From Candidatus Saccharimonadota bacterium (GTDB lineage: Bacteria > Patescibacteriota > Gracilibacteria > UBA1369 > 2-02-FULL-48-14), in contig JBAZVE010000001.1 of NCBI GenBank assembly GCA_041661045.1, positions 840,001 through 872,000 on the forward strand: DNA of 32,000 bases, written 5' to 3'. Below are positions 11,289 to 29,161 of the stretch, piece after piece (position 1 is the first letter of the stretch; the number at the start of each line of letters is the position of its first letter). The notes beneath the pieces were generated by a model. The model saw nothing but the letters and a program-made list of their open reading frames with translations, searched no databases and was not told where the DNA came from. Position numbers and translations under genes: made by a program.

Positions 11289-11299
11289 GCTACAGGGGA
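11225..11299 (-). tRNA. tRNA-Asn (anticodon GUU)
   Basis: Manual cloverleaf on the minus strand: TCCCCTG-TA-GCTC-AGTGGTA-GAGC-A-AGCGA-CTGTTAA-TCGCT-GGGTC-GTTGG-TTCGAAT-CCAAC-CGGGGGA-G-CCA. CCA is encoded. Confidence 0.9.
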
Positions 11300-14197: not shown

Positions 14198-14271
14198 TGG
14201 GGATTAGCCAAGTGGTAAGGCAGCGGGTTCTGGTCCCGCCACCGGGGGTTCGAATCCCTCATCCCCAGCCA
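14198..14271 (+). tRNA. tRNA-Gln (anticodon CUG)
   Basis: Manual cloverleaf: TGGGGAT-TA-GCC..GGC-A-GCGGG-TTCTGGT-CCCGC-CACC-GGGGG-TTCGAAT-CCCTC-ATCCCCA-G-CCA. The U1-A72 pair is typical of bacterial tRNA-Gln. Confidence 0.9.
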
Positions 14272-14395: not shown

Positions 14396-15775
14396 TCAAT
14401 TCCCGTTCCCCTGAGGCGCAGTGGCATTAGGAGAAATCTGCACTTGTAGTGGGGTGATTGATTCATTTTCTGCATTTTTGAACCAAACTTTCCCTTCTTT
14501 CAAAAAGAGTTGCCCCGCCAAAGTTGCCAGAAAATCCCTTTTCTCTACTGGAGTTCCGCTTTTCAGGATGTAGTGGATGTATTCATGTTCCGTGATTTTT
14601 TTCGCCCCTTCGCCCATCGTAATTTCATGCAGTTCATTCATTTTTTGGACTTCCCGAGTTATTTTCTTATGTATCCGTAACTCCTTGCTTTTGAACTGAT
14701 CTACCAGCTTGGCGATGCTCTCAATAAGCTCCTCTTCACGGATGTATTTTTCATCGCACCGCTTGGTGCCTCCGTATTTTGTGCATTTGTAGTAGGTGTA
14801 GCTTTTTCCATGCCTGTTGATATGAGTTTCGCCACAAACCCCAGACTTACAGGCTCCGCACTTGAACAATTTACTGAAATAGAAGCTTTTGCTGCCCCAC
14901 TTCTTTCTTTCAAAGGTTTTAATGGCTTTCTGTGCGGCTTCCCACTGTTCTTTTGTAATGATCGGCTCATGAGTTCCTTCGTACCAGTTACCGCTTCCTT
15001 CTGGGTATTCGAACTCACCGTAGTAAAATTGATCTTTGAAGATTCTATAGGTCATGCTGAGTGTTACTTTTTTACCCTTCCTTGTTCTGAACCCTTCGTC
15101 CGTAAGGAAGTCGTTTATTTGTCTTCCGCTAAAACCGTTGATGGTCAGGTAGTCAAACATCTTTTTAATGAACGGGGCACGTTCAGGATCTATGATTATT
15201 TTGCTTTCCGCTGAAAGTTTTTCTGGATCTCGATACAATTTATATCCTAAAGGTTGGATTCCAGGTCTTTTCCCTCGTTCGCATTTTGCTCGAAGCCCAC
15301 GCTTCACGTTTTTCCCTCGATTGTCGTTCTCTAGCTTTGCCTGGCTACACAAGATCATGAGTAGAAACTTCTCGTTGGGTGAATTTATGAAGGTTTGTCC
15401 GTGAGTTCTAATGCTGACGAGCTTGCCTTCGTCCATAAGGTCTACAATATCGCCTAAATCGCCAGCATTACGGCTTAGGCGGTCTGGAGCCCATGTTAAA
15501 ATGGCATTGAATTTGCCTTCGTCCAGCTCCTTTAGCATTTCGTTAAACTTTGTTCTTACGCCCTTTGCCTTGGCACTTTTGCTCTCCTGTTTTACCTCAA
15601 CAATCGTGAGGTTTTCCTGCTCTGCGATCTGCATCATTTCATGAATCTGTGAGTCTATGCTCATCGCCTGTTTTTCGTCCGATTCCGAGGACTTTCTGGC
15701 GTAAAGGCAGTATTTCAGGGGTTCATCTAAATCTGTCATGGTAGGTGGGTTAAAGCCTACCCACATAGATGACAC
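14396..15775 (-). CDS. large serine recombinase (integrase), paralogous to 9531..11288
   Basis: LYARKSSESDEKQAMSIDSQ and APDRLSRNAGD form the resolvase catalytic domain. It also has a Cys-rich zinc ribbon (CGACKSGVCGETH...YYKCTKYGGTKRC). It aligns by eye with the other recombinase (Y.R.SSE..EKQ..SI..Q; F(N)(Q/E)ML(E/K)EL; (T/D)RLSRNA). The start may be the ATG at 15739. Confidence 0.9.
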   Translation of the reverse strand: MSSMWVGFNPPTMTDLDEPLKYCLYARKSSESDEKQAMSIDSQIHEMMQIAEQENLTIVEVKQESKSAKAKGVRTKFNEMLKELDEGKFNAILTWAPDRLSRNAGDLGDIVDLMDEGKLVSIRTHGQTFINSPNEKFLLMILCSQAKLENDNRGKNVKRGLRAKCERGKRPGIQPLGYKLYRDPEKLSAESKIIIDPERAPFIKKMFDYLTINGFSGRQINDFLTDEGFRTRKGKKVTLSMTYRIFKDQFYYGEFEYPEGSGNWYEGTHEPIITKEQWEAAQKAIKTFERKKWGSKSFYFSKLFKCGACKSGVCGETHINRHGKSYTYYKCTKYGGTKRCDEKYIREEELIESIAKLVDQFKSKELRIHKKITREVQKMNELHEITMGEGAKKITEHEYIHYILKSGTPVEKRDFLATLAGQLFLKEGKVWFKNAENESITPLQVQISPNATAPQGNGN

Positions 15776-15805: not shown

Positions 15806-17911
15806 CTATTCCTCAAGCTGAATGATCATAGGCAAATTTGACCTTACTGCTTTCCCTGTAATGATGGCGTGATACCGTTTCAAGTTTGGAAGTGTCTTAA
15901 CCAAGTTTTGTCCGATATAGTTTCCTAAAAATGTAAAACTCGTTTCATCAAAAGCTTGAAAACAAATGACGGTGTTACACTGAGTCAAAACCGTTTTGGA
16001 AACGTTTGCTGTTCGTTGTGCAATGACAAGCAATCCAACACCATACTTTCTTCCCTGTAATGCAATCTGACTCATCTTACTTACAAGTGCTTTACTGCTA
16101 CCATAATCGCCTAAATCTCCTAGGAAGTTTGTCTCTGGTATTATCGTGTGAGCTTCTTCGAGCACAATACATATTTTCTGTCCGCGATGCTGTTTTGCAT
16201 AAGAGAAGACTGCCTCTAAAAACAACTGAGTGAATTCCAAAACGAACATCGTATTAGACAGTTCAGGGAGCTCAAAAAGTGCAATTTTATCTTTTGACTC
16301 GATAAACGTTTTCACATAGCCCCCAAGTTTTTCATTGATCTTCTTTTTGTACTCTAAAAGTTTGGTTTTGTCCGCATTTCTCGAGCTAGCCTCAGTCTCT
16401 TTTTGTGCGATATCTGCTTCAAGTTGACTCAGATCTGACGTGCCGATTAATGCCACTGGATTCAAACTAGACATGCTTGTTTTCCACTCACCAGTAAAAT
16501 CAACACAAATAACTTTAGTATCTTGAGACAACTCTCGAATGATTTTACGCGCTAAGTGAGACTTACCAGATCCTGTTACCCCTAACAATGCCGTATGATG
16601 ACTTACAGCTTCGTTAAGATCCAATACCGACGGTAACGTTGTTCCTGGTATTATGCCGATCTTATAATCTGGGTATTGAAGTGCCGCCACATCAATATTT
16701 GAAGTATCAGCTTTGAAGACAGGTGTATTGATCGGTGGCACCCATCCAAATTTTTGAAAAGACAGGTCAGATGACTGCCATTCACCTAATTGAATAGCTT
16801 CGCCTCTGATATATCCCATTTCATTTCTACCCTCGAGATGTTCTCTTTGTGTTAGTCCACCAAAAACCTGATAAAACAATCTTTTATCTCCAATTTTTAA
16901 CTCAAGCAGGTCACCTTCCTGTAGGTCATCCTCCTTTTTCGAATACTCGAACTGTATCCGACCAATCTCTGACCCCTCTATAATGACACCGACAAAGTTC
17001 CGTATATTCAGCTGTTCACTTAAGGCTTGTTTCTCTTCGGCGTTAGTAATTTTATAAACGATATTATTATCAGATTTCTTTCTTTTCTCCTCGATCTCTC
17101 CTAACTGCAGTACTTTCGCCCATTTCTCTTGATTCAATAGGTAGGTATCAAAAACTATTCCAGACATAACATACTCATTTGAAGCTTGCATTGAGTATTT
17201 ACATTTGACCAGGTCGAACTTTTTTATGGATTTGCGATCCTCGTGCAATCTTACCAAAAACATTTTTTTTGACTGAACACCAAAAATAACTCCGATTTCG
17301 TCTGCATCCTTAACCTTTCTTCTGATAGAAAAAGTATTGGTCAGCTCATTGGGGTCTATAGCCATAATGATCCCCCATAAAACAAGTAAGAACATGAACT
17401 GCCCCGCAAAAATTTTACTAAGCCCATCTGCATCTATATTTACATATAGGAAAAGAAAAAATACTGCAGAGTAGATTACTTTCCCCTTTCCGATTATAAC
17501 CGCCAGATTTTTTAAGAAATCTGCTGTTTTATTTCTTATATGGTCAGGACTTTTATTCTCATCTTGAAGCCCAATTGAAATGAGAGATATAGAGAGTGCT
17601 AGTAAAAGTATCACAACTGCTATCCACCATAAGGGCTTATTGATAAAGTTGCTCTCTACAGAGAGAAAAACCAATAAAAGTGGTATCACATTTGTGATTA
17701 CATTTCTTGGTGAAGAATAATATGGCTCAATAAATAAAACTGAAAAGAGAACCATAAAAATTCCCGAATAAAACCAAAGATCTTCAGTCTGAGTGCTTGG
17801 TAAAAAACTTTTTGAAAAATAATAATTTGATACGATGAAAACTCCGATGAATATAAAAAATAGGAAGAACCTGTTTTTCAGCAATTTTCTGATCAACTCC
17901 ATACAAGACAC
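15806..17911 (-). CDS. membrane-anchored HerA/FtsK-superfamily (DUF87-like) ATPase
   Basis: 701 aa. The first ~190 aa hold roughly six hydrophobic helices. A central barrel-like region follows. The C-terminus has Walker A GVTGSGKSH, Walker B ICIVLEEAH and LLVIAQRTANVSKTVLTQCNTVICFQ. The start (GTG 17911 or ATG 17902) is 2-11 nt from the upstream stop. Confidence 0.75.
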   Translation of the reverse strand: MSCMELIRKLLKNRFFLFFIFIGVFIVSNYYFSKSFLPSTQTEDLWFYSGIFMVLFSVLFIEPYYSSPRNVITNVIPLLLVFLSVESNFINKPLWWIAVVILLLALSISLISIGLQDENKSPDHIRNKTADFLKNLAVIIGKGKVIYSAVFFLFLYVNIDADGLSKIFAGQFMFLLVLWGIIMAIDPNELTNTFSIRRKVKDADEIGVIFGVQSKKMFLVRLHEDRKSIKKFDLVKCKYSMQASNEYVMSGIVFDTYLLNQEKWAKVLQLGEIEEKRKKSDNNIVYKITNAEEKQALSEQLNIRNFVGVIIEGSEIGRIQFEYSKKEDDLQEGDLLELKIGDKRLFYQVFGGLTQREHLEGRNEMGYIRGEAIQLGEWQSSDLSFQKFGWVPPINTPVFKADTSNIDVAALQYPDYKIGIIPGTTLPSVLDLNEAVSHHTALLGVTGSGKSHLARKIIRELSQDTKVICVDFTGEWKTSMSSLNPVALIGTSDLSQLEADIAQKETEASSRNADKTKLLEYKKKINEKLGGYVKTFIESKDKIALFELPELSNTMFVLEFTQLFLEAVFSYAKQHRGQKICIVLEEAHTIIPETNFLGDLGDYGSSKALVSKMSQIALQGRKYGVGLLVIAQRTANVSKTVLTQCNTVICFQAFDETSFTFLGNYIGQNLVKTLPNLKRYHAIITGKAVRSNLPMIIQLEE

Positions 17912-17913
17912 TG

Positions 17914-20900
17914 TTAAAAACTACCTGTTTTATTCATTTTTTCCATGAGTTGGATCGTCTCATGAATTGCGGACGCCATCCTTTGATAGTGTTCAATGTC
18001 TTCTCTTGATAGCGATCTTCCACGGCGATCTTTTAGCCATTTTTGGAGTGGCTGATAGCCTCCGATAGAGAATCCCCAAGCTTCTTTAGATATATTTCCA
18101 AAGAACTGCTTATCGTTCATGAAAATATTTTTATCTTTAAATTTTGGATATCCGTCTTCAACAATGTCGTTACCTGTGATCTGAAAAGTTGTACTTAACT
18201 GATCCAATAATTTAGATTTGAGAAGATGCAACTCACGAAGTTCACTCCCAATTTTTGCAAACATGTGAAAATCCGCTTTATTTTTAGGATAAGGTATTTT
18301 TGGAAAATCAATTTTTAAAAAATCTAGATATCTCTTCCTGTATGGAGGGGCATGTAGTACGCCATAGACGTAATCCAAAATTTCTAATGGAGCAACCTGT
18401 CCAGCGATTCCAACAATTTTATTGAAAATATTTTGATTAATATTAGTCACGCGTTCACTCCCTTGAGAGTACAGATAGAGTGGGAATGTTTGACCACCAC
18501 CTCTTCTGAATATATTCAAATCTGTTGGAGAGTCGGAAATAAATGCTACATCCCATTCCTCAATATTTGCAGTTTTTCCTTGTCGTCCAAAAACTAGGGC
18601 GACATTGTCTTTGTCTATGAGATGAGACATGGTTTCGTACCTGGGATATGCAATAAACCCTTTCGATGATTTCGTTAGCAACGTATAGCGTGTATCAAAT
18701 GGGCGGTAACAAAATTTTGAAATACTGCCTTCATCTGATTTCACACTTTCTACTGCGACATCGATTCTCCAATCTCGTGTCTCATAAAGAGAATATTTTA
18801 CGATAAGATCCTTTTTCTCCATATATCTAAAATCAGCAGCGACCTTTTCCAAGCCCTCTTTGTCAAAGTGCACCGTTAAGTCGTCACGAAAAGTTGCTAT
18901 CCCGACACTATTGATTGGAAACAGCTCTGTGACAGAGAAGCCCTCATCATATTTCTCCTTAACTTCATCATTAAAAGGGATGAAATACAGATTTGGTGCC
19001 TTGGGATTTATTCGTACCCATTTCATTTCTGCCCAGCTATTTCCATCTAAAAGTTCATATTTTAAATCCTGCCGTCCAAAAAAATCCGCATGATATACTT
19101 CTGCTTTTTTATTCACTGATTTCTGATTTTTGACTGCAAACAATATTGCCGTCCCAGTTCTTATTCCAAAAACATTTCCGTCTTTTCCTCCGTCAGGAGC
19201 TCTCTCTTTTTTGTTTAAGTTGCCATGTAAATCTAAGATGTAGATCTCATCGAAGGTTTCCATCAAATGCCAACGCATGCCTCGAAAAGTTGGGTTATCA
19301 AGATAACCATGCGGTGTAATAAAACTCACGATTCCTTCACCAGTTTTTTGGATTTGATTCTCGGCAAAATGAATGAACTTCACATAATCGTCGTTGATCC
19401 ATTTTGAGTTTTTCTCTTGCAGTTTCACAAGACCTCCAGGTTCAACCTTGTAAACATCGTGACCTGAATAGTTTTTGTTAAAACTTTCACCAGAGTACGG
19501 AGGATTCCCCAAAACCACCATGATTGGCATCTCAGATTTTATCTTTGAAGCTTCGTGCGATTCTTCTGTAAGCCACTGACTCATGAAAAGATTTGGGACT
19601 TCGTGAACAGATTCTTCTAAGCTATTGGTGAGCCAGACTGACAGTCTTTCGTCTCCACTGTAGCCCAACTCTTTCAGGGTCACGCCTAATTTCAGATGGG
19701 CCATTGTGTAACTAGCCATCATCAACTCAAAGCCATGAATTCGTGGGAGCAGATGATCTTTCACATAGGACGGCCACAAACCTTCTTGGCCTTTGAAAGA
19801 TTTGAAAATCACATTGATGACCTCATTTAAAAAGGTTCCTGTGCCAACGGCAGGGTCAAGAACTTGCACTCTATGAATCTGGTTTTTCTTTCTTTTAATC
19901 CCATCTTTTCTTCGAGCATCTTCGCCTTGAAGCTTCTCTTGATGGTCAATCATACTTGTATCTGCTAAACCCTTTGGCAAATTGAATTTAGATTTCAAGA
20001 TTTCATCAACGGATCTCACGATGAACGAAACAACAGGCTCTGGGGTGTAATAGACTCCTCGATTTTTACGCAGCCCTTTGTCGTATTCAGCCAGAAATGT
20101 TTCGTAAAAGTGAAGGACGGGGTCTTTTTGCTTCGTAGCGAATTCCTTATGCATCAGTTCATACACATTTGCGCTCAGATATGCTTCGACTAGACTATCT
20201 ACTAACCATGCTATTTTTGGGTCATAATCCGTACCTGCTACGTGTCCGAAGAATTTTTTCAACAAAGGGTTTGAGGCTGGCAATAGGTCTTGAGCTTCAT
20301 GCCTTGAAAAGGTTTTGATTGTCGAATCGTAGTATCGAGCTACGAATAAGCCATAAACCAGAGTCTGTGCGTACATGTCTGCAAACTCTTGTTCGGAAAG
20401 CTCTCTAATAAGTACTTCTTTAAAAGTTTTGTACTGTGCGTAAATGTCCGAATCAGGATTTTCAGTCAGAGAAGCCAGCGCATTATCTCTCAAAATTCGT
20501 GCCTTACTTGCCATGATTTCTGCCAGTTTCCTTGCGGATCTAATCGTGCGATGAAACGGAGTGATGTAGTCCTGAATAATGTTCGCAAAACGCTCAAATT
20601 CTGACTGTCTGGCTATGATTTGATCACCGTTTTTATCTGCAATGGAAATCGCAACCACTTCACCCTCCTCACTTAAAATTTGGAAATCAAAATAATTCGT
20701 AAGCAAAATCCTTCCGAATGCTGCAACGTATCGGTTTGCCTGTTTCTGAACTTCTGAATTGGCGATATCAACCGTTACATCCTTACACTCAGCATAGGCT
20801 ACTGGAGTTGCTCCGCTCTTGAATAAAAAATCGGGAGCGTTACCTCCCGTGTAGGCTGGCTCATTGATCACTTGAATTTCTGGCTTCAGTCCTTGAATCA

Positions 20901-21006
20901 ACCTTTGAAAGGCTGGCCTATAAGCATGCTCACGCGCATCTCCAGACTGGAGTATTTTCTGTATCTCAACAAGATACTCGTGGATTATTTTATTTGAGTC
21001 AGCCAT
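17914..21006 (-). CDS. type IIG-like fused restriction endonuclease / N6-adenine DNA methyltransferase with a type ISP/MmeI-like C-terminal specificity region
   Basis: 1030 aa. The N-terminus has a PD-x13-ExK motif (APDFLFKSGATPVAYAECKD). MTase motif I (VLDPAVGTGTFL) precedes motif IV (VLGNPPYSGE), the gamma-class order. The C-terminal FSIGGYQPLQKWLKDRRGR pattern is as seen in MmeI/type ISP/YeeA-like enzymes. Confidence 0.85.
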   Translation of the reverse strand: MADSNKIIHEYLVEIQKILQSGDAREHAYRPAFQRLIQGLKPEIQVINEPAYTGGNAPDFLFKSGATPVAYAECKDVTVDIANSEVQKQANRYVAAFGRILLTNYFDFQILSEEGEVVAISIADKNGDQIIARQSEFERFANIIQDYITPFHRTIRSARKLAEIMASKARILRDNALASLTENPDSDIYAQYKTFKEVLIRELSEQEFADMYAQTLVYGLFVARYYDSTIKTFSRHEAQDLLPASNPLLKKFFGHVAGTDYDPKIAWLVDSLVEAYLSANVYELMHKEFATKQKDPVLHFYETFLAEYDKGLRKNRGVYYTPEPVVSFIVRSVDEILKSKFNLPKGLADTSMIDHQEKLQGEDARRKDGIKRKKNQIHRVQVLDPAVGTGTFLNEVINVIFKSFKGQEGLWPSYVKDHLLPRIHGFELMMASYTMAHLKLGVTLKELGYSGDERLSVWLTNSLEESVHEVPNLFMSQWLTEESHEASKIKSEMPIMVVLGNPPYSGESFNKNYSGHDVYKVEPGGLVKLQEKNSKWINDDYVKFIHFAENQIQKTGEGIVSFITPHGYLDNPTFRGMRWHLMETFDEIYILDLHGNLNKKERAPDGGKDGNVFGIRTGTAILFAVKNQKSVNKKAEVYHADFFGRQDLKYELLDGNSWAEMKWVRINPKAPNLYFIPFNDEVKEKYDEGFSVTELFPINSVGIATFRDDLTVHFDKEGLEKVAADFRYMEKKDLIVKYSLYETRDWRIDVAVESVKSDEGSISKFCYRPFDTRYTLLTKSSKGFIAYPRYETMSHLIDKDNVALVFGRQGKTANIEEWDVAFISDSPTDLNIFRRGGGQTFPLYLYSQGSERVTNINQNIFNKIVGIAGQVAPLEILDYVYGVLHAPPYRKRYLDFLKIDFPKIPYPKNKADFHMFAKIGSELRELHLLKSKLLDQLSTTFQITGNDIVEDGYPKFKDKNIFMNDKQFFGNISKEAWGFSIGGYQPLQKWLKDRRGRSLSREDIEHYQRMASAIHETIQLMEKMNKTGSF

Positions 21007-21081
21007 GTTGGTTTAGTTTGCTCCTGTACTTTAGATCAAATCATCTGGAATTTAAAGCGCATCAAGTCTTGCTACACAACA

Positions 21082-22599
21082 ATGACCTTTTTTGCTAAGC
21101 TCAACTCAATGAAAATCACCGCTTCCCACCTCTACAACTACAACGCTTGCCCACATCGGGTATGGCGAGATGCCCACGATAATCCAAATCTGAGGGATGA
21201 TCCGAATGAATTTGTTCAGCTTCTTTGGGAGAAAGGGACTCAATACGAACAGCAAGTTTTAGATGGGATGAAAGGTGAGCGTACGGTTTTGGATCTGTCC
21301 GTTGTCCCAAAAGATGACCGAGCAAAGGCAACATTGGATGCGATGGCTAAGAAAGAGCCCCTTATCTATCACGGTCGTTTGGAAGTCGATGAGCTTTTAG
21401 GAGAACCTGACCTTTTGGAGTTGCAACCGAACAATGAGTACGTTGCCATTGATATCAAATCGGGAATGGGAGTTGAGGGTGGAGATGATTTTGAAGAAGG
21501 AAAACTGAAAAAACACTATGCCCTTCAGTTGGCACTCTACACGGATGCATTGAGGAGGCTTGGGGTTGCCACTCACTACCTTGGAAAAATTTATGATAGT
21601 ACTGGTCAATTGGTTGAATATCGTCTCGATCAAGCTCGAGGAGTGAAAGCAAAAGAAACGTGGTGGGAATTTTACGAAGAAGCCCTCATGCATGCTGGCA
21701 ATATTCTAAAAGGTTCAATTCACACAAAGGCCGCTCTCGGGAGCGTTTGTAAGATGTGCGTCTGGTACACCGACTGTAAAAAGACGTGTATACAGGATGA
21801 TTATCTTTCGCTTATTCCAGAACTGGGTCGTGCCAAACAAGATGCTTTAGAGGCCATTGCCACTACGGTTCGTGAACTTGCAGATTTAGACCCTGCAGAC
21901 TTCATTGATGCAAATGGGAAAGTAGATTTACCTGGCATTGGAAAGCCTACTTTGGAGAAATTCCACAGAAGGGCTCAGCTCTTGGCTGATGGAGTGAAGG
22001 AAGTTCAAATCCTTGTACCTTTTACCCTGCCAGAGCGTCCAATTGAGCTTTACTTCGATATTGAGACGGATCCCACTCAAGACCTTGTTTATTTGCATGG
22101 AGTGGTTGAAAGACGTATGGATGCGCCCGATAAAACAAAGTTCCACGCTTTCCTTGCAAAAGGAGTGAGTAAAGCTGATGAACGTTTGGCCTGGGAAGAA
22201 TTCTGGGCATACATCCGTTCTTTGCCAGACGCTTATGCCGTTTACTATTACAGCAAGTATGAGCGCACACAGTTCCGAGCTTTAAGAGCAAAATACCCGA
22301 GTGTTATTACAGAGGAAGAATTGGAGCACTTTTTTGACAACGAGGCTTCAATTGACCTGTATGAATATGTGAAGAAATTTACCGAGTGGCCTACATACAA
22401 TTACTCCGTCAAAACACTCGCTCAATTTTTAGGATTCAAATGGCGAGATGCCAATCCATCTGGGGCTGCCTCCATCCAATGGTTCAACGAATGGTACAAA
22501 GATCAAACTCAAGACAAGATGCAACGCATCCTCGACTATAACGAAGATGATTGCATCGCCATGTTGGTATTGAAGGATGAGCTTTTTAAGCGCATCTAA
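21082..22599 (+). CDS. RecB-family nuclease, TM0106-like (Cas4-like Fe-S nuclease domain fused to an RNase H-fold exonuclease-like domain)
   Basis: 505 aa. The N-terminal part has YNACPHRVW, DIKSG, YALQLALY and CKMCVWYTDC (Cx2Cx5C plus an N-terminal Cys, a Cas4/AddB-type cluster pattern). The C-terminal part has YFDIETDP, YYYSKYE and DYNEDDC (DEDD-like). The start may be the ATG at 21109. Confidence 0.8.
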   Translation: MTFFAKLNSMKITASHLYNYNACPHRVWRDAHDNPNLRDDPNEFVQLLWEKGTQYEQQVLDGMKGERTVLDLSVVPKDDRAKATLDAMAKKEPLIYHGRLEVDELLGEPDLLELQPNNEYVAIDIKSGMGVEGGDDFEEGKLKKHYALQLALYTDALRRLGVATHYLGKIYDSTGQLVEYRLDQARGVKAKETWWEFYEEALMHAGNILKGSIHTKAALGSVCKMCVWYTDCKKTCIQDDYLSLIPELGRAKQDALEAIATTVRELADLDPADFIDANGKVDLPGIGKPTLEKFHRRAQLLADGVKEVQILVPFTLPERPIELYFDIETDPTQDLVYLHGVVERRMDAPDKTKFHAFLAKGVSKADERLAWEEFWAYIRSLPDAYAVYYYSKYERTQFRALRAKYPSVITEEELEHFFDNEASIDLYEYVKKFTEWPTYNYSVKTLAQFLGFKWRDANPSGAASIQWFNEWYKDQTQDKMQRILDYNEDDCIAMLVLKDELFKRI

Positions 22600-23666
22600 G
22601 CTCGGGCGAAGTTCTCCAATGCTTTGATGATCTTATCGCAGTTGGAAACGACTTCGTCTGTTTTTAGGTAGAGGTCTGAGAAGCTCTGAGGATTGATCCG
22701 TACCACTGAAGTCACATTTGCCTCCTTTAGCGCTTCGTACAGTTTTTGTTTTTGAGTATTGTCGCTGAGGTAGTTGAAATAGAAGACCGCCTTGCCATCG
22801 GAGCCGAGTGTGAAGAATGCTCTTGGAGAAATCGAGGAGAATCTGGGTTTGATGGAGCCAACTTTTACACCCGTTCCAAGTTCCATTTCATCCGCATTCC
22901 TTTTCAAGAATTCATAAATTTTCAAAAAGCAGTCGTACTCATTTTTGTTCAACCTTTGTTTAGCATCCATCATGAGTTCTTCCATGCTCCAGCCTCTTTT
23001 AGCCCCGCTCGATGTTTTTACGGTTATGTCTTTTTTTACTTCGGCACCGAAGAGTCTCGGGATAATGATTTCGAAGGCATCGTGCTTGTAATACTCCAGC
23101 TCTACCGCATACACATCAAATTGACTGTTCTGGTTTAAGAAAACGATCAAGTCTTTGAGTCTCTGGTGGAGTTTATCCATGAGCACTACGAATTTGAAAT
23201 TTCCTTCATTGAGGTTGTTTTTCACATTGTCCCAGAAATTTGCCACCTCCTCTTGCTCGAAACCGAAGAATTCTTTCAATTTATCTTCCACTGGCATGTT
23301 GAAAAATTGCTTGCTTGCGTGATCTATTTCAGAAATGAATTGAGCAAGATTGCTCCCGTTCTTCCAAAGGGAAGCACCGTAATCCAGGACTTGGGCTACG
23401 ACCGTGCGTTTATCGGCGTTTTTATAAAGTTTCGTTTCCACTAGGTAGAGGTTACCTTCTGCATCCACGCCTAGAGCGTCGATAGGTCCACTGTTTGTTG
23501 GGTACTCACGAATGAGGATTAGGAGTTGAATATCTTCTTTGATGTCGTATAGCGGAATGGAGCTTGGATTCTCATAAATATAGCGTTGCAGGTGATCCTC
23601 CCGATCGAAGTTGGACTGCTGTATTTTTTGTGCGTTCTTCCCTGATTGAGATACGATGATAGTCAT
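22596..23666 (-). CDS. NucS/DUF91-like PD-(D/E)xK nuclease-domain protein with a C-terminal extension
   Basis: GPIDALGVDAEGNLYLVETKLYKNADKRTVVAQVLDY fits the D...ExK...Q..Y pattern. The track start is GTG 23714, but that would run into a terminator-like hairpin, so the ATG at 23666 (MTIIVSQ...) is preferred. Confidence 0.6.
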   Translation of the reverse strand: MTIIVSQSGKNAQKIQQSNFDREDHLQRYIYENPSSIPLYDIKEDIQLLILIREYPTNSGPIDALGVDAEGNLYLVETKLYKNADKRTVVAQVLDYGASLWKNGSNLAQFISEIDHASKQFFNMPVEDKLKEFFGFEQEEVANFWDNVKNNLNEGNFKFVVLMDKLHQRLKDLIVFLNQNSQFDVYAVELEYYKHDAFEIIIPRLFGAEVKKDITVKTSSGAKRGWSMEELMMDAKQRLNKNEYDCFLKIYEFLKRNADEMELGTGVKVGSIKPRFSSISPRAFFTLGSDGKAVFYFNYLSDNTQKQKLYEALKEANVTSVVRINPQSFSDLYLKTDEVVSNCDKIIKALENFARA

Positions 23667-23678
23667 ATTTTTTGATTT

Positions 23679-23811
23679 AAAAACAAAAGGGACAACCTGA
23701 CTTGGCAGTCCCACATTCTTGGCTCACACAGAGTCAATTCAGCGGGCAAGTAGGTTGCCCCAGCTTGCACTGAATTGACATATAAATATGTGTGAGAATG
23801 GATTGTGGGAC
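23679..23811 (-). promoter_or_regulatory. candidate structured leader / attenuator (or long imperfect palindrome)
   Basis: Four nested perfect helices: 23708-15/23804-11 (8 bp), 23723-30/23789-96 (8 bp), 23733-42/23770-79 (10 bp) and 23744-49/23755-60 (6 bp). On the minus strand the outer 3' arm can instead pair with GTCCC (23693-23689), which is followed by TTTTGTTTTT. Confidence 0.35.
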
Positions 23812-23910: not shown

Positions 23911-25392
23911 CTAGTGCCTAAAGCGAATTAAGTTCCCACCTTCACTCGTTCTGGTGAATGCACCATAGAACTGGTGGGTAACGTTGATGAGCATGGAAAT
24001 GGCGTCTGGCAAATCGTCATGCTTCAATCCCTCGTGGAAGTTGAGTAGCTGACGGAGCGGATGATTGTACTTTTGTGGGAAAAACACGTGCCCTTGTTCC
24101 ATCGGGAAGGTGGCAGCCTGCAAACGACCCACTTTATCCGTCGATAGGTTCTTCTCCCTGTATACGGAGACATCTCCGTACTCAAACAACGCCGTTTCGA
24201 TATTGCTTGCAAGCAAGTCCTGCGCCCCGTTGGATTCTACGATGATTTTGATCGTTAAAGTACGTTTTTGACCGTATTTATCGATGAACCATTTTAATTT
24301 TTGGATTAGATCGGGTACAGAAATTCTTCTTTCTAAATATTTTGGTAAGAAATGTATTTCGTATCGCCCCTTAACGATATAAACGTAGGCGGCTACTACG
24401 GCCGTGAAGTCAGCGCTTTCTTTCAAGGAAAAGGCAGGATCTATGGAAATCACCATTTCCTCCAAGTGATAGTCAGCTCTACTCGGCAACTCATCTTCTC
24501 TTTTTATCCATTTTGGTTGGACGATCATGTCGTACCCAGAACTTGGTATCAGCAGGTACTCTCTGTTGAACATGAGCGTTCCACCAACTTTTAATCGGAC
24601 TTGTTCCATTTTGTTGTCTGGAAATTTTTCAGGCCAACGGGATTTTCCATTTTTATCCAGCAGTGGAATTTTGAGGAAGAGACCTTCGTTCCCCTTATCC
24701 ACCAAGTTGTGCTTTAGCCTCAGAAGATAGGACTCGTCATGGATAAGATTTCCCACAAAGAAGAAGCGTGTCCTTTGGTTGTGTCCCGCTGGCATTAGAT
24801 CCGCTAGTATTTTTTGATACATTTTGTCACGAATCTCTTGGGATCGTACCGAGTCAACGTCTTCAAGGTCATCACAAATGATGAGTTCGGGACGGTGGCG
24901 TCCGAACTTGATTCCACGGTAGCCCTGATTCTGAGAGACAATTGTTATCCTTGCACCGTAGTAAGTGAGATCAATGTCCGTACTGGACCACGTTTGACCC
25001 TGACCATTCTTTTCAATTTTAAACGGCCCAAGATCTTGTTTTAAAAGTTCATTCGTCTCCAATTCGATCTGTATGTTTTTTAAATAACGCTCTGCTTGGT
25101 CTTTAGTTTTTGCAACGATTAAAACAAACTTAAGTCCTTGAACGCCCATGATTGACCACAGTGGGAAGCAGGTTGTGAAAACCGTGGTTTTGGCCGACTC
25201 ACGAAATGCACTTACAATCACGTACTTGAACTTGGTTTCTTCGCAAGCGTCGAAGTAAGTCTGGTGGAAAGGTGCAAAATCGTACTCCATGTGTTCATGG
25301 AAGTAGACGGACATGTACGCTTTGATGGAGTGACGAGTGAGTTCTTTTCGGATTTTTGTGGTTTTTAATGCTTCAAAAAGAAAGTCATTCAT
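23911..25392 (-). CDS. terL: phage terminase large subunit
   Basis: 493 aa. Walker A-like SAFRESAKTT and Walker B ELIICDDLED. The C-terminal RNase H-like nuclease region has acidic motifs (ISIDPAFS, DDLPDAISM). Confidence 0.85.
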   Translation of the reverse strand: MNDFLFEALKTTKIRKELTRHSIKAYMSVYFHEHMEYDFAPFHQTYFDACEETKFKYVIVSAFRESAKTTVFTTCFPLWSIMGVQGLKFVLIVAKTKDQAERYLKNIQIELETNELLKQDLGPFKIEKNGQGQTWSSTDIDLTYYGARITIVSQNQGYRGIKFGRHRPELIICDDLEDVDSVRSQEIRDKMYQKILADLMPAGHNQRTRFFFVGNLIHDESYLLRLKHNLVDKGNEGLFLKIPLLDKNGKSRWPEKFPDNKMEQVRLKVGGTLMFNREYLLIPSSGYDMIVQPKWIKREDELPSRADYHLEEMVISIDPAFSLKESADFTAVVAAYVYIVKGRYEIHFLPKYLERRISVPDLIQKLKWFIDKYGQKRTLTIKIIVESNGAQDLLASNIETALFEYGDVSVYREKNLSTDKVGRLQAATFPMEQGHVFFPQKYNHPLRQLLNFHEGLKHDDLPDAISMLINVTHQFYGAFTRTSEGGNLIRFRH

Positions 25393-25807
25393 TGGAGGGT
25401 GGGGTAAAAGAATTTTTCGTATTCAACAACTTGAGAGCTCTTTGAAGAATTTCTGTCTCATTTTTGTTGAGTACATCGCTTCTTCTTTGAAGAAGCTGTT
25501 TTTGTGCAAGTGTTGAGTTGTAATCGATGTGATGATTTTTTAGCCAGTAGATTATTCCCGTCATATTGCCCGACTGAATGGCTTTGATGAGCTGGGCTTC
25601 TGCGACATCGTTCACCTCATCCTTGCCACCTTGCAGGGCGGTTTGGGCAGCTTCTCTGAACTCTTGATCGTCTTGGATCCACCTGTAGTAGGTGGCTCTG
25701 CTGACGCTCATTTTCTCACATGCTGCTCGGACGATTGGCATTTTCTTCAACTGGCTTATCAGTTGTTCTTTTCGAACGTCTTGTTTATCTTCTGTTGTCA
25801 TGGTCAT
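25385..25807 (-). CDS. HTH protein, terminase small subunit-like
   Basis: 140 aa. The HTH is ACEKMSVSRATYYRWIQDD, and IIYWLKNHH resembles the (I/F)(F/Y)WLKN motif of small terminases. It overlaps terL by 8 nt. Confidence 0.55.
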   Translation of the reverse strand: MTMTTEDKQDVRKEQLISQLKKMPIVRAACEKMSVSRATYYRWIQDDQEFREAAQTALQGGKDEVNDVAEAQLIKAIQSGNMTGIIYWLKNHHIDYNSTLAQKQLLQRRSDVLNKNETEILQRALKLLNTKNSFTPPSNE

Positions 25808-26577
25808 GGCGTTAAGAATATGGGTTCTATCCCTGTCATTTTTTTGAATCGATCGACGATGATTTGGCAGTACTTCGGTTCAAGTTCCATAGCGAAGCAT
25901 CGCCGTTTGGCCTGTTCCGCAGCAATAAGTGTGCTTCCCGAACCAGAAAATGGATCGTAAACCGTTGCGCCCACTTTGGAAGAATTTAGAATCAAGTGAC
26001 GCATAAGTGGCACAGGTTTCATAGTTGGGTGGAGCTTGTTGTTTTGGGTCTTTGGATAAATGAGGATGTTCTTATCCTTGGACTTGTAAAATTTGTGTGT
26101 TCCATGCCATCCGTAAGCGATGAGCTCTGACTGAGGTAGGTAATCCAGCCTTCCTATGTTTGCCGAGGTCTTGAGCCACACCAGCAGTTGCTTAAATAAA
26201 AACTGCTCGGCTTTAAGCCCATCTAGGAGAGCGTGGATCATGCGATCGCTGTTGAAAATATAGAAGGCATTTTTGTCAGCAAGGTGCGACTGGCAGGCCG
26301 TTAACCACTGTCGTGTGAAGTCCACATACTGCTCGTGCGACTGGAGTTGGTCGTTGGCAATGGGAATGTGACGGCTGGATAGATCTTCCTTGCTTTCCAC
26401 CACGGCCACTCCGTACGGTGGGTCGGTCGCAATGAGGTCTATTTTCTGCCCTTGCATGAGGGTTTCCACATCTTTGTGGTTTGTGGCACTTCCGCAGTAA
26501 ACTAAGTGGTTTCCGAGTTGTATTAAGACCCCTCGCTCAATTGAGCTTGAGGGCCTTTTGGTTGGTGAGTTTTTCAT
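25804..26577 (-). CDS. DNA methyltransferase (N6-adenine/N4-cytosine, beta class)
   Basis: Motif IV IATDPPYGV precedes motif I DPFSGSGSTLIAAE. Confidence 0.9.
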   Translation of the reverse strand: MKNSPTKRPSSSIERGVLIQLGNHLVYCGSATNHKDVETLMQGQKIDLIATDPPYGVAVVESKEDLSSRHIPIANDQLQSHEQYVDFTRQWLTACQSHLADKNAFYIFNSDRMIHALLDGLKAEQFLFKQLLVWLKTSANIGRLDYLPQSELIAYGWHGTHKFYKSKDKNILIYPKTQNNKLHPTMKPVPLMRHLILNSSKVGATVYDPFSGSGSTLIAAEQAKRRCFAMELEPKYCQIIVDRFKKMTGIEPIFLTP

Positions 26578-27808
26578 AGCGTGTAACGATTAATGAGGCG
26601 AATAAAGGATCAAGTTCAATGAGAAGGCAACGGCGGTTCATTTGCTGGCATGCGGCCATTATTGAGCCACTACCTCCGAAAAGCTCCAGTACGTAATCAC
26701 CTGGTTTGGTGCAACGTCTGAGCATGCGTTCGTAGATAGTGGGACTTTTCTCCGTGGGATGTAAATATTTGGCTGAAGGAAGCCGTTTTTCTAACCAAAT
26801 GTCTAGCAAATCAAGAACGTCATCGTGCGCACGATTGCCTGTGCCGACTTCCTTGTTCATGATCTCAGCGAAAGATGTGTGATAGCTGGAAAGAAAGGGC
26901 TTACCTCGTGTGCCGTAGCAACAGGGTTCATAGCAACGGTTGAAAGCGATCTGAGGTGTTACCATTGCGGAGTTTTTCAGCCATAGACAGACCCGTTGCT
27001 GTTTGATTTCGTGCTCTGCATAAAGACTCTGAATCAATCCAATGTAATTTTGATCTGAGAATGTGAAGTAATGGCAATCTGGCTGTGAGACTGTCACTGC
27101 ATTTTTTAAGATTTTGCTCAGGAAAGTTCGGTAGTCTTCGTCTGATTTGTTGTCGTCAACGACCGTTCCTCCATACTTACCCTTGGTTCCAATGCCTTTA
27201 TTATAGTCAATTTTCAGATTATAAGGTGGGTCCAGTGTGATGAAGTTTATCTTCTTGTCCCCGACAAGCTTCTTCACCACATTTAGGTCAGTGCTATCCC
27301 CACAGGCCAGCACATGCTGGCCTAGCTGGTAGAAGTCTCCTTCCTTTACGAATGGCTCCTTGAGTTGCTTCAACTCTTCCTCGACATTGAAGTCGTCATC
27401 TTCTGTTTCGGATACGTCATCCCAGAGATGCTGCAATTCCTCCGAAGAGAAGCCAACGTCTGTGAGAAGGTCTAGATCGAACTCACGCAGCAAATCCCAA
27501 TCCCAGCTTCCGAGATTTGAGTTTAGCCTGAGATTTAGTTCCCGTTCCTTATCAATATCATCGATTCTTACATAGGACACGGGTACTGTTTCGTAGCCGA
27601 GTTCCTTTGCTACGTGAACTCGGAAGTGACCGCCTAGTATCACGTTTTCTCTACCCTTAGCAGAATTTACTAAAATTGGGACAACCAGGCCGAAATTTCT
27701 AATACTGGCTTTTAGATCTGCTATTTGTTTCTCATCCCAGCGTCGAGGATTATAGTCGGAAAGTTTTAGCTCTGATATTTTAACTTGGTGAATTGTAAGA
27801 TCGTTCAT
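26537..27808 (-). CDS. ParB-like nuclease domain fused to a DNA methyltransferase (beta class)
   Basis: The N-terminus (LKLSDYNPRRWDEKQIADLKASIRNFGLVVPILV, GGHFRV) is a ParB/Srx domain. It is followed by LDPPYNL (motif IV) and ELFGGSGS (motif I). Confidence 0.9.
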   Translation of the reverse strand: MNDLTIHQVKISELKLSDYNPRRWDEKQIADLKASIRNFGLVVPILVNSAKGRENVILGGHFRVHVAKELGYETVPVSYVRIDDIDKERELNLRLNSNLGSWDWDLLREFDLDLLTDVGFSSEELQHLWDDVSETEDDDFNVEEELKQLKEPFVKEGDFYQLGQHVLACGDSTDLNVVKKLVGDKKINFITLDPPYNLKIDYNKGIGTKGKYGGTVVDDNKSDEDYRTFLSKILKNAVTVSQPDCHYFTFSDQNYIGLIQSLYAEHEIKQQRVCLWLKNSAMVTPQIAFNRCYEPCCYGTRGKPFLSSYHTSFAEIMNKEVGTGNRAHDDVLDLLDIWLEKRLPSAKYLHPTEKSPTIYERMLRRCTKPGDYVLELFGGSGSIMAACQQMNRRCLLIELDPLFASLIVTRYEKLTNQKALKLN

Positions 27809-27840
27809 GTTGAAGTGGGTTACGATTAAGTATCCCCGAC

Positions 27841-27880
27841 AAAGTTTGTCAGAGTTTGTCGGAGTTGTTCGGAGTTTGTT
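27841..27880 (+). repeat. four tandem 10-bp iterons (RAGTTTGTC-type)
   Basis: aaagtttgtc agagtttgtc ggagttgttc ggagtttgtt, with exact 10-bp phasing. It lies 33 nt upstream of the ParB-MTase start. Confidence 0.7.
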
Positions 27881-27910
27881 TTTTTGGAAGCTTCCTTTGT
27901 TTTTATTTGT

Positions 27911-27926
27911 ACGTTCGCGCGAACGT
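27911..27926. repeat. perfect 16-bp palindrome ACGTTCGCGCGAACGT
   Basis: Read directly from the sequence. It is flanked by a second palindrome, GGAAGCTTCC (27886-27895), and by CGATCG/GCGATT repeats. Confidence 0.6.
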
Positions 27927-27992
27927 AGCGATCGATTGCGATTGGATTCTAGGGTTAATTGATGCCGAAATCAATCAATAAACCACCTTTTC

Positions 27993-28022
27993 AGAGTTTG
28001 TCAAAGTTTGCAGGAGTTTGTC
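27993..28022 (+). repeat. three tandem 10-bp iterons, same family and orientation
   Basis: agagtttgtc aaagtttgca ggagtttgtc. Confidence 0.7.
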
Positions 28023-28114: not shown

Positions 28115-29161
28115 TCATTCCATGTTATTCAACTTGAAATTCACCTCATAAGTTTGCAATGAAACGTTGGGGAGTGTCTTGAGCGCATAGCGGATGCGGT
28201 CGTCATGGGAACCTAAAATGATGAGGCCTTTTACCGTTTCACCTTCACTAGCTAAATGTTCCGTTACAAAGCCGATGTACCTGAGCACTTGTCCAACTAC
28301 TTCGTCGCTGGATCTGCCTCGTTTTAATTCAATAACCAGCCACTCATTCCCATCTTTGCTTTTGGCGAGAATATCAATGCGGCCTACGATCTTGGTGTCG
28401 TATTGCTGTCCGATTAAATCACCGTCCTCTTCAAGAATTGAGTGTGTTGCGCCCAGAGGGGTTTTATCCCAGTTGTACACGAGGAATTCCTCCAAGAACT
28501 TTTCGAGTCCGAATTCAGCCACGTCTGTTACACCTTCTTTCTGGAGTATGGCTTCCACTACTTCCGAATCCTCATCTTCCTCACTGCCAATGGGTTTATT
28601 ACCAAGTGAGAGCCAGCCTACAATCTCATCTGTTTGCCAGAGAGTAAGCTCGTGCTCTTTGGCGAACTGTCTCAAGACTTCATTCACAGCAATGTATCGT
28701 TCCGCAAAACTTTTTCCTTTCAAATTTGGGAGTAGCCCAGCTGCCTCCAAACCTGCTTCACTCTTCGTATTGAATACTCCGTATCTTTCGGGATGAATTA
28801 CAAGCAGAATGGGCGTTACTATGGCCCTGCCTAAGCCTTTGATCATTGAAGGCCCTTTGGGCGGGAATAGGTCGTCCAAACGCTCTTTAAGAGACCGTGT
28901 TTCGTCCAATAGGATCTTCAACGCCCCGATGAGTCTCGGCATATTTTCTGTGATCATGTTGCCCTGACGATGGATTCCGTCCCAATGCCGATTGTTTTTG
29001 ATTACAAGAAACGATTTGAAATCTTCCTTTGTGAGGCGGTCAAGGTTGGATGGGTGAAAGATCTGGCCGTATTTACTGATCACGTCTTCCTCTTCCTGTA
29101 GTCGTTTGGGATTGGTGAGTACGAGCTGTTTCCACTCGTCGACTTGGTTTTTATCGATCAT
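28115..29161 (-). CDS. NucS/DUF91-like PD-(D/E)xK nuclease-domain protein (C-terminal) with an unknown helical N-terminal domain
   Basis: 348 aa. GRIDILAKSKDGNEWLVIELKRGRSSDEVVGQVLRY carries the same D...ExK...Q..Y signature as ORF 22596..23666. Confidence 0.6.
   Translation of the reverse strand: MIDKNQVDEWKQLVLTNPKRLQEEEDVISKYGQIFHPSNLDRLTKEDFKSFLVIKNNRHWDGIHRQGNMITENMPRLIGALKILLDETRSLKERLDDLFPPKGPSMIKGLGRAIVTPILLVIHPERYGVFNTKSEAGLEAAGLLPNLKGKSFAERYIAVNEVLRQFAKEHELTLWQTDEIVGWLSLGNKPIGSEEDEDSEVVEAILQKEGVTDVAEFGLEKFLEEFLVYNWDKTPLGATHSILEEDGDLIGQQYDTKIVGRIDILAKSKDGNEWLVIELKRGRSSDEVVGQVLRYIGFVTEHLASEGETVKGLIILGSHDDRIRYALKTLPNVSLQTYEVNFKLNNME

Follow-up and report, generated by a model that had tools for sequence, protein, structure and literature searches.

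Introduction

The HerA-type ATPases so far known from defence systems are all, to our knowledge, soluble and work with SIR2, DUF4297 or Dnd/BREX-like proteins. Here we describe a HerA-type ATPase with a membrane domain of its own, found in a stretch of 32,000 nucleotides (nt), called the window, from a Candidatus Saccharimonadota bacterium (GenBank assembly GCA_041661045.1, contig JBAZVE010000001.1, positions 840,001 to 872,000). The protein of 701 amino acids (aa), called TM-HerA for its transmembrane (TM) domain, is encoded directly downstream of a 1030-aa Type IIG restriction enzyme in an integrated element. Restriction-modification (R-M) operons of several kinds have repeatedly taken up a gene of the TM-HerA family, and the stop codon of one gene then usually overlaps the start codon of the next. 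TM-HerA is probably an undescribed second-line anti-phage module; a full-length model is absent from PADLOC v2 and NCBIfam, and no description was found in the literature. The original prediction for this locus, made from the DNA sequence alone, was that the Type IIG enzyme and the ATPase work together as one machine.

Comparison with described systems

The best structural matches of TM-HerA are SIR2-HerA (Nezha, Gao19) and DUF4297-HerA, which it also resembles in the ATPase-core models that match it and in its defence-island context. It differs from them in that six TM segments are fused to its N-terminus, that it is embedded in R-M operons, and that no SIR2 or DUF4297 gene is adjacent: neither was found in the window, nor among the top families in a Pfam scan of 125 immediate neighbours of TM-HerA genes.

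HerA-NurA is a pair in which a ring ATPase is encoded beside a nuclease, as is TM-HerA in a subset of its loci. NurA is RNase-H-like in fold, and the TM0106/DUF2779 partner of TM-HerA carries an RNase-H-like exonuclease domain. The differences are that this partner is a Cas4/RNase-H fusion and not NurA (for which neither the window nor the top neighbour families gave a match), that TM-HerA is membrane-anchored and that there is no Mre11/Rad50 context.

FtsK/SpoIIIE, TrwB/VirD4 and CedB are built like TM-HerA, with a TM domain at the N-terminus and behind it a ring ATPase from the same superfamily. The middle region of TM-HerA is however of the HerA type, its TM domain is a different one, and its genes do not stand in a division, type IV secretion system (T4SS) or Ced context. 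PrrC and RloC are like TM-HerA in being encoded by a single accessory gene between R-M subunit genes (hsdS-X-hsdR), co-transcribed with them. The proteins are unrelated, TM-HerA having no anticodon-nuclease domain and occurring also with Type IIG enzymes and outside R-M loci. Zorya type II also combines a membrane-anchored module with a nuclease, and in one of the loci surveyed below (loci are given as L and a number) it stands between a Type IIG gene and a DUF2779 gene (L152), which is the position of TM-HerA in L110; the Zorya proteins, a MotAB-like motor and an HNH nuclease, are unrelated to TM-HerA.

The Thermus element ICEth1, integrated in a tRNA gene, carries an operon for Tth111II (a type IIG enzyme), NurA, the HerA-like membrane-associated ATPase TdtA and a methylase, and TdtA is needed for DNA donation (PMC5365140). 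The window likewise combines a type IIG enzyme, a nuclease, a membrane-associated HerA-like ATPase and a methylase in a tRNA-integrated element. TdtA is by its description set apart from TM-HerA, being a 568-aa protein for which no TM domain is mentioned, with NurA as the nuclease and a role in DNA donation (PMC5365140).

The nearest published concept to TM-HerA is that of the "HerA/FtsK-anchored capture systems" (DndFGH and the BRC/BREX-related systems) proposed by comparative genomics (PMC10853773, PMC12839542). The shared idea is that a HerA/FtsK translocase intercepts foreign DNA for the nucleases of R-M-like systems. The partners in the published cases are ORC/Cdc6-like proteins, PglZ or DndF/G, the HerA proteins are not fused to a TM domain, and neither paper describes the TM-HerA family.

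The TM-HerA protein

The hydropathy profile of TM-HerA has six hydrophobic segments within residues 14-187, and the AlphaFold2 (AF2) monomer model has helices there; this domain is followed by a beta-rich, barrel-like middle region (205-420) and a C-terminal ATPase core with the Walker A motif GVTGSGKSH (444-452) and the Walker B motif IVLEEAH (582-588). The mean predicted local distance difference test score (pLDDT) is 74 for the full model and 82 for the TM domain. The core matches Pfam DUF87 (5e-14, 53 bits, cut-off 23), and a Foldseek search with the C-terminal 500 residues placed SIR2-HerA, DUF4297-HerA and HerA-NurA at the top (E 1e-18 to 1e-14). A RecA-like core with Walker A and B motifs preceded by a predicted beta-barrel region places the protein in the HerA/FtsK superfamily. 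In 23 TM-HerA homologues GxTGxGKS, VLEEAH and many residues of the TM domain are invariant, among them the motif WFYSG...FIEPYYxSPxNVxT, which is predicted to lie at the cytoplasmic face provided that the topology is N-in, C-in as the positive-inside rule suggests. A fold search with the TM domain found no relative in the PDB (best E 0.46).

Public records label members of the family "DUF87 domain-containing protein" or "ATP-binding protein". The HerA_antiphage models of PADLOC and NCBIfam match the ATPase core only, those of NCBIfam with about 70 bits against cut-offs of 800-850, which together with the literature search bears out the view that a TM-HerA gene beside an R-M enzyme is an uncatalogued architecture. 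Weak profile matches were seen to TrwB_AAD_bind (22 bits, marginal) and to CedD. Membership in MADS (methylation-associated defence system), a set of genes mad1-8 with the MAD2 methyltransferase and the mad8 ATPase, was considered and rejected because the likeness is generic: mad8 matches the P-loop core with 2e-20, MAD2 reaches 38.6 bits against a cut-off of 720, and no other mad genes are present.

The stop codon TAA of the Type IIG gene is separated by 2 nt from the GTG start codon of the TM-HerA gene, whose first ATG is 11 nt downstream. A terminator scan found none between the two genes, and with a gap of 2-11 nt they are presumably co-transcribed. This junction, a 75-bp divergent spacer and a 4-nt convergent overlap, all of them part of the original prediction, were seen as described, as were the domain calls, and ORF calls with motif and profile checks recovered every listed sequence feature in its place.

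The TM-HerA family and its link to restriction-modification operons

The family was surveyed by a pattern search combined with tblastn in one genome per GTDB species. Members were found in at least 253 species genomes and in many phyla, Patescibacteria, Bacteroidota and Campylobacterota among them. At 50% identity (E<=1e-30) the family forms 527 clusters, and of the best 150 hits, which were the ones listed, the majority align from the TM domain onward. The best 80 of the 253 confirmed loci were kept, and 82 loci were examined for neighbours. TM-HerA as a typical phage gene was rejected, with 0 matches in INPHARED, 1 in IMG/VR and 13 in plasmids, the latter all distant (identity <=37%).

Of the 82 loci, 23 have an R-M gene directly beside the TM-HerA gene and 32 have one within 3 kb; among the 55 loci with 3 kb of sequence on both sides the latter count is 23. 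When the R-M genes are counted by position they occupy position -1 in 20/76 cases (26%), position +1 in 11/78 (14%), and positions +-6 to 8 in 5/231 (~2%; Fisher p ~3e-9). The median gap between the TM-HerA gene and an adjacent R-M or DUF2779 gene is -1 nt (n=34, with many 4-nt overlaps), as opposed to 134 nt for other neighbours. The top Pfam families of the immediate neighbours are Methylase_S, N6_Mtase, HsdR domains, ResIII, Mrr_cat, MmeI and DUF2779; the T4SS and relaxase families are not among them.

Several operon types recur. The order hsdM-(x)-hsdS-HERA-hsdR is found for example in L004, L005, L021, L031, L032 and L045; hsdM-HERA-hsdS-Fic-helicase in L015 and L052, and without the Fic gene in L048 and L054; mod-res-HERA-DUF2779 in L017 and in L084, whose HerA protein is 72% identical to that of the window, with L035 as the variant res-x-HERA-DUF2779. 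In L046 a Type IIG enzyme of the MmeI family is followed by HERA, and L003, L072 and L073 have DUF2779-HERA. The remaining loci resemble defence islands with Fic, RhuM, AlbA_2, GmrSD, KAP NTPase, TIR and Shedu genes.

A second TM-HerA subfamily, 28% identical to the first, is likewise embedded in R-M operons. Its arrangements are IIG-HERA-DUF2779-PIF1 with a 4-nt overlap (L110); mod-res-HERA-PDDEXK_1; a helicase/DUF559 protein, HERA and an ExoVII-like protein in this order; Dam-DpnI-HERA; and, in Aliarcobacter and on an Arcobacter plasmid, hsdS-hsdM-hsdS-SMODS-SLATT-HERA-AlbA_2-hsdR.

Two side observations belong to this survey. The Type I operon of L167 (1723-13657) and of L169 (Arcobacter plasmid CP146529.1) holds three modules between hsdS and hsdR, namely SMODS with SLATT, TM-HerA, and an AlbA_2/HATPase_c_4 protein. 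In L166 (12492-13894) a diversity-generating-retroelement pair (an RVT_1 reverse transcriptase and bAvd) adjoins a TM-HerA island with a serine recombinase.

One explanation of these neighbourhoods is hitchhiking, in which the function of TM-HerA has nothing to do with R-M and both merely travel in defence or mobile islands. The promiscuity of TM-HerA in its partners and the absence of R-M genes from many loci would fit, and defence islands are known to mix unrelated genes. Hitchhiking is at variance with the R-M fraction, which peaks sharply at the adjacent position and is down to about 2% by the sixth gene in those loci, with insertion inside operons between subunit genes and with 4-nt overlaps, and with the same habit in two subfamilies so far apart. 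We regard it as improbable.

A neighbour-joining tree of the HerA proteins shows that partner types switch between sister tips. This bears on another explanation, according to which TM-HerA is a guard of the PrrC/RloC kind, held by the R-M complex and freed as a membrane suicide effector upon anti-restriction. The position of TM-HerA in hsdS-X-hsdR is that of prrC in the EcoprrI locus, the genes are tightly embedded with overlapping codons, TM-HerA occurs like RloC with Type I and Type III-like systems, and the slot it uses is common to Abi_C. The partners, on the other hand, are structurally unrelated (HsdMSR, Mod/Res, two Type IIG families, DpnI) and switch between close HerA relatives, for which reason a specific inhibitory contact is disfavoured. 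There is also no R-M gene nearby in many loci, and no part of TM-HerA resembles a toxin domain. A guard function of this kind seems unlikely to us.

The Type IIG enzyme and the conservation of the pair

To judge from its sequence, the protein of 1030 aa belongs to a known, normally stand-alone family of Type IIG/IIL enzymes like DrdV and MmeI, and it is complete. Nuclease and N6-methyladenine (m6A) methyltransferase (MTase) are predicted in one polypeptide with its own target-recognition domain (TRD), in the order N-terminal PD-ExK nuclease, gamma-class m6A MTase and Type_ISP_C TRD. The motifs are PD-x13-ExK (P58 D59 ... E73 C74 K75), DPAVGTGTFL (384-393) and NPPY (501-504), and the nuclease and MTase motif residues are invariant in 19 homologues, whether a HerA gene is present or not. 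Pfam matches are Type_ISP_C (2e-73, residues 694-1022), N6_Mtase and Eco57I; the PADLOC match is REase_MTase_IIG (2e-277). The closest solved chain is DrdV (7lo5, 6e-41), followed by LlaBIII and LlaGI, with MTase and TRD aligning. DrdV, a single-chain Type IIL enzyme that is not known to need a helper, has the same length and domain order as the window enzyme. The Type ISP enzymes LlaGI and LlaBIII are defined by an SF2 helicase motor between nuclease and MTase, for which no helicase family match was found in the 1030 aa of the window enzyme; they are longer (1406-1578 aa), and the alignment begins only at their MTase.

According to the original prediction the ATPase could be a translocase or sensor that licenses the nuclease, possibly at DNA entry. 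Spelled out, this enzyme and TM-HerA would form a dedicated two-protein restriction machine, to which the ATPase would supply the translocase that Type ISP enzymes have in cis. In agreement with this the two genes are co-oriented with a spacing of 2-11 nt, the enzyme has a Type ISP C-terminal domain without the ISP helicase motor, and the pair is found again in L083 and L171 and recurs in L110 (4-nt overlap) and, with the MmeI-family enzyme, in L046.

The pair is however not conserved except in close relatives of the window element. None of the 82 TM-HerA loci has a homologue of this Type IIG enzyme within 10 kb of the TM-HerA gene. In the reverse direction a HerA gene stands beside the Type IIG relative in 1/80 metagenomic loci (L110); in 55 of the 80 the sequence downstream reaches 1.5 kb or more, and of these L110 alone has TM-HerA there. 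The statement that the Type IIG family is normally stand-alone thus agrees with the survey, and the prediction that the two genes belong together does not. L110 is an independent recurrence of the trio of Type IIG enzyme, TM-HerA (28% identical) and Cas4/RNase-H nuclease, again with a 4-nt overlap.

The close relatives show how variable the slot behind the enzyme is. The sister elements L083 and L171 retain the pair, but in L171 TM-HerA, 94% identical, is frameshifted beside an intact Type IIG gene. L171 is Ca. Peregrinibacteria CP064962.1, 1614-11174, where TM-HerA is split (216 + 453 aa) and the terminase is split too. Its Type IIG enzyme is 70% identical to that of the window as opposed to 79-94% for the neighbours, and by this contrast the R-M allele appears to have diverged or been swapped faster than the rest. 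L173 has the same recombinase and TM0106 flanks, with an unrelated 213-aa protein with one TM segment in the slot. The slot holds an Abi_C protein in L172, a 186-aa TM protein followed by DUF2779 in L155, and uncharacterised proteins of 333 and 366 aa in L174 and L175. In L152 (3859-12113) a complete Zorya II (ZorB2, ZorA2, ZorE2), DUF2779 and an Mrr-type nuclease (Mrr_cat + Zn-ribbon) follow the enzyme, closely spaced and on the same strand.

A slot that relatives fill with Abi_C, TM proteins or Zorya II, the frameshifted HerA gene of L171 and the closest solved relative DrdV, which has no known helper, all argue against the dedicated machine, as does the fact that HerA is also found with Type I and Type III systems, which bring their own motors. 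We find such a machine very unlikely. What stands of the proposed link is the broader one, between TM-HerA and R-M operons in general, and not the specific pairing. It is the ATPase that is conserved as a unit, alone or together with the Cas4/RNase-H nuclease, and the restriction enzyme of the window is an ordinary one.

It was also observed that the gene directly downstream of the Type IIG family encodes a TM-like hydrophobic segment in 23/53 loci, compared to 24% of all ORFs there (Fisher p ~0.001, from a crude hydropathy scan of loci L085-L175).

A protein 100% identical to the window enzyme (P0121) is encoded on a 1.32-Mb contig labelled Candidatus Gracilibacteria. Because of this label an alternative genetic code was considered for the window and rejected: TGA terminates 8 of the 20 long ORFs, so table 11 holds. 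In another locus, L018 (Ca. Gracilibacteria STC_129), reading by table 11 leaves the ORFs, the HerA gene among them, broken up into fragments of some 100 aa, which, unlike the window, is consistent with UGA recoding (code 25).

The flanking nucleases

The 505-aa protein is a member of the TM0106/COG2251 family, with a Cas4-like PD-(D/E)XK domain with a Cys cluster and a C-terminal RNase-H-like domain. It matches TIGR03491 (TM0106 RecB-like; 3e-67, 227.7 bits, cut-off 97), PDDEXK_1 and RNase_H_2 above their cut-offs and Cas4 models with about 1e-6; the cysteines are a C-x2-C-x5-C motif (CKMCVWYTDC) and an N-terminal Cys. DUF2779 and COG2251/PF13482 (TM0106) have the same architecture of a Cas4-like PD-(D/E)XK domain and an RNase-H-like 3'-5' exonuclease (PMC3985635, PMC13621843); their N-termini align weakly.

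DUF2779 adjoins TM-HerA in at least 7 other loci. A Cas4/RNase-H-type nuclease is often the third partner, and it is present in about 10% of the TM-HerA loci. DUF2779 or TM0106 is found with TM-HerA in the window, L083, L171, L084, L017, L035, L003, L072, L073 and L110, and with the Type IIG family in loci without HerA in L173, L174, L175, L152 and L155.

The 372-aa ORF converges on the 505-aa ORF with a 4-nt overlap (22596-22599), as had been noted. Its product had been called a NucS/DUF91-like nuclease, and here the likeness is weak: the Pfam match (0.0026) is below threshold, NCBIfam gives 1e-6, and only stretches of 30-80 residues match, with scores of 18-28 bits where the cut-offs are 24 to 252. 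The PADLOC candidate defence family PDC-S11 (1e-17) suits it better. The Type IIG enzyme, the TM0106 nuclease and the PDC-S11 protein are thus all members of known families.

The integrated element

The four genes (Table 1) are the defence cargo of an integrated element of about 15 kb which has phage-type packaging genes and lacks structural genes. The same element with the same gene order is found in L083 and L171, the latter a complete Peregrinibacteria genome. The recombinase is 84% identical to the L171 copy and 73% to the L173 copy. The G+C content is 0.34-0.42 across 16-21 kb (cargo) and 0.47-0.51 at 11-14 kb (host genes). Repeats of the att type were looked for at the element and none was found, and a promoter scan of the divergent 75-bp region gave no convincing sigma-70 match.

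Table 1. Coordinates of the features in the window (aa, amino acids; HTH, helix-turn-helix).
Feature	Position	Strand	Evidence or remark
tRNA-Gln(CTG)	14198..14271	+	Left edge of integrated element; ARAGORN
Large serine recombinase, integrase of element	14396..15775	-	Pfam Resolvase 2e-22, Recombinase, Zn_ribbon_recom
TM-HerA, 701-aa membrane-anchored HerA/FtsK-superfamily ATPase (predicted)	15806..17911	-	Pfam, PADLOC, NCBIfam, AF2 model, Foldseek
TM-HerA ATPase core (aa ~430-701)	15806..16624	-	Pfam DUF87, PADLOC HerA models, Foldseek
TM-HerA N-terminal 6-TM domain (aa 1-190)	17342..17911	-	Hydropathy, AF2 model, conservation
Type IIG/IIL enzyme, DrdV/MmeI-like, 1030 aa	17914..21006	-	Pfam, PADLOC, solved-chain matches
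Divergent intergenic region, IIG-HerA operon and TM0106 nuclease gene	21007..21081		75 bp
TM0106/COG2251-family nuclease, 505 aa	21082..22599	+	TIGR03491, PDDEXK_1, RNase_H_2
PDC-S11 NucS-like PD-(D/E)XK protein, 372 aa	22596..23714	-	PADLOC PDC-S11 1e-17
Element backbone remainder	23911..27808	-	Same order in L083 and L171
Terminase large subunit	23911-25392	-	
Small-terminase-like HTH protein	25385-25807	-	
DNA MTase	25804-26577	-	
ParB-MTase	26537-27808	-	
Second NucS_C/YhcG-type PD-(D/E)XK nuclease	28115..29161	-	Near right edge of island
Host Na+/H+ antiporter gene	29972-31408		Follows the second nuclease gene

Between the ParB-methylase gene and the second NucS_C/YhcG nuclease gene there are iteron-like repeats of about 10 nt (TTGTCRGAGT, at 27836-28021), which may serve the element as a site resembling parS or an origin. 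Upstream of the element a second large serine recombinase is encoded at 9531-11288 (+), its 3' end overlapping a tRNA-Asn (11225-11299, -), and a protein with NERD and SEC-C domains at 6148-8298 (-), which suggests another integrated island just upstream of the one studied here.

The setting in a mobile element raises the question whether TM-HerA is a DNA pump, like TdtA or a coupling protein, moving the DNA of the element across the membrane. The parallel is the TdtA operon of ICEth1 (PMC5365140), and the window element is likewise integrated beside a tRNA gene; in addition there are the weak TrwB_AAD_bind and CedD matches, and the combination of a TM domain with a ring ATPase resembles FtsK/SpoIIIE. 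The neighbours speak differently: relaxase, T4SS and competence families do not appear among the top families of the 125 genes scanned, which give no support to the coupling-protein alternative, also raised at the outset. For most copies the setting is a chromosomal R-M operon or a defence island and not a recognisable element, the window element has a terminase of its own, and the family is nearly absent from phage collections and has only distant matches in plasmids. A DNA pump appears highly doubtful.

Discussion

The explanation that we favour, and to which we give about even odds on the basis of gene context, is that TM-HerA is a self-contained second-line defence module and not a subunit of the restriction enzyme. 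We rate it as a HerA-based defence module that doubles as an R-M-embedded accessory gene.

A possible mechanism can be outlined. A hexameric TM-HerA ring would sit on the inner face of the membrane, with the TM domain fused at the N-terminal barrel end, and would load onto linear DNA or DNA ends. These could come from the neighbouring restriction enzyme as fragments, or be phage DNA that escapes restriction near its entry site. There may then be two outcomes, either of them driven by ATP. In the first one (a) the ring would feed the DNA to a nuclease, which would be the Cas4/RNase-H partner if present and otherwise the nuclease of the R-M system. In the second one (b) the ring would drive its own TM domain to membrane damage and an aborted infection. 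For the window (a) is slightly favoured because of the TM0106 nuclease next door, and for the many loci without a nuclease partner we favour (b). In solved complexes the barrel face at the N-terminal end of HerA is the docking site of SIR2, DUF4297 and NurA. The TM domain of TM-HerA may be an effector or a gate, since it is fused at this partner-docking end.

Several points weigh against the favoured explanation. The defence role is read from gene context only. Since no protein in the PDB is recognisably related in fold to the TM domain, its role as an effector is conjectural. The element can do without TM-HerA, as the frameshift in L171 and the replacement in L173 show. A universal partner was not found: downstream genes do not cluster even by phmmer, and an all-vs-all comparison of 52 proteins for a hidden small conserved partner gave only HsdR, HsdS, DUF2779 and Fic groups. 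About 58% of the loci with full flanks are without a profile-detected R-M gene within 3 kb, so the R-M link is frequent and not obligatory. It should be noted that the R-M profiles were seeded from the same neighbourhoods, so that the counts are minimum values and depend on the sample, that the genes of the surveyed loci are crude longest-ORF calls on contigs many of which are short, and that the tree is a simple distance tree.

A wider proposal, which we put forward as a tentative and rather doubtful one, is that TM-HerA represents a widespread and so far unnamed class of anti-phage modules which work with R-M systems of any type. A membrane ring would capture DNA ends at or near the entry site and either finish off DNA already attacked by restriction or, where restriction cannot cope, bring about the death of the cell. 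The R-M-embedded genes PrrC and RloC are the classic case of layered immunity. Direct tests of the TM-HerA proposal are within reach, since carriers in culture whose operons are annotated are available in Aliarcobacter (Aliarcobacter butzleri, L167), Parapedobacter (Parapedobacter tibetensis, L045), Polaribacter and Flavobacterium. If it is true, restriction would have a general membrane-tied "second stage". If TM-HerA is functional, restriction would gain a further layer, and with it would come a DNA sensor or translocase of a new, membrane-coupled kind.

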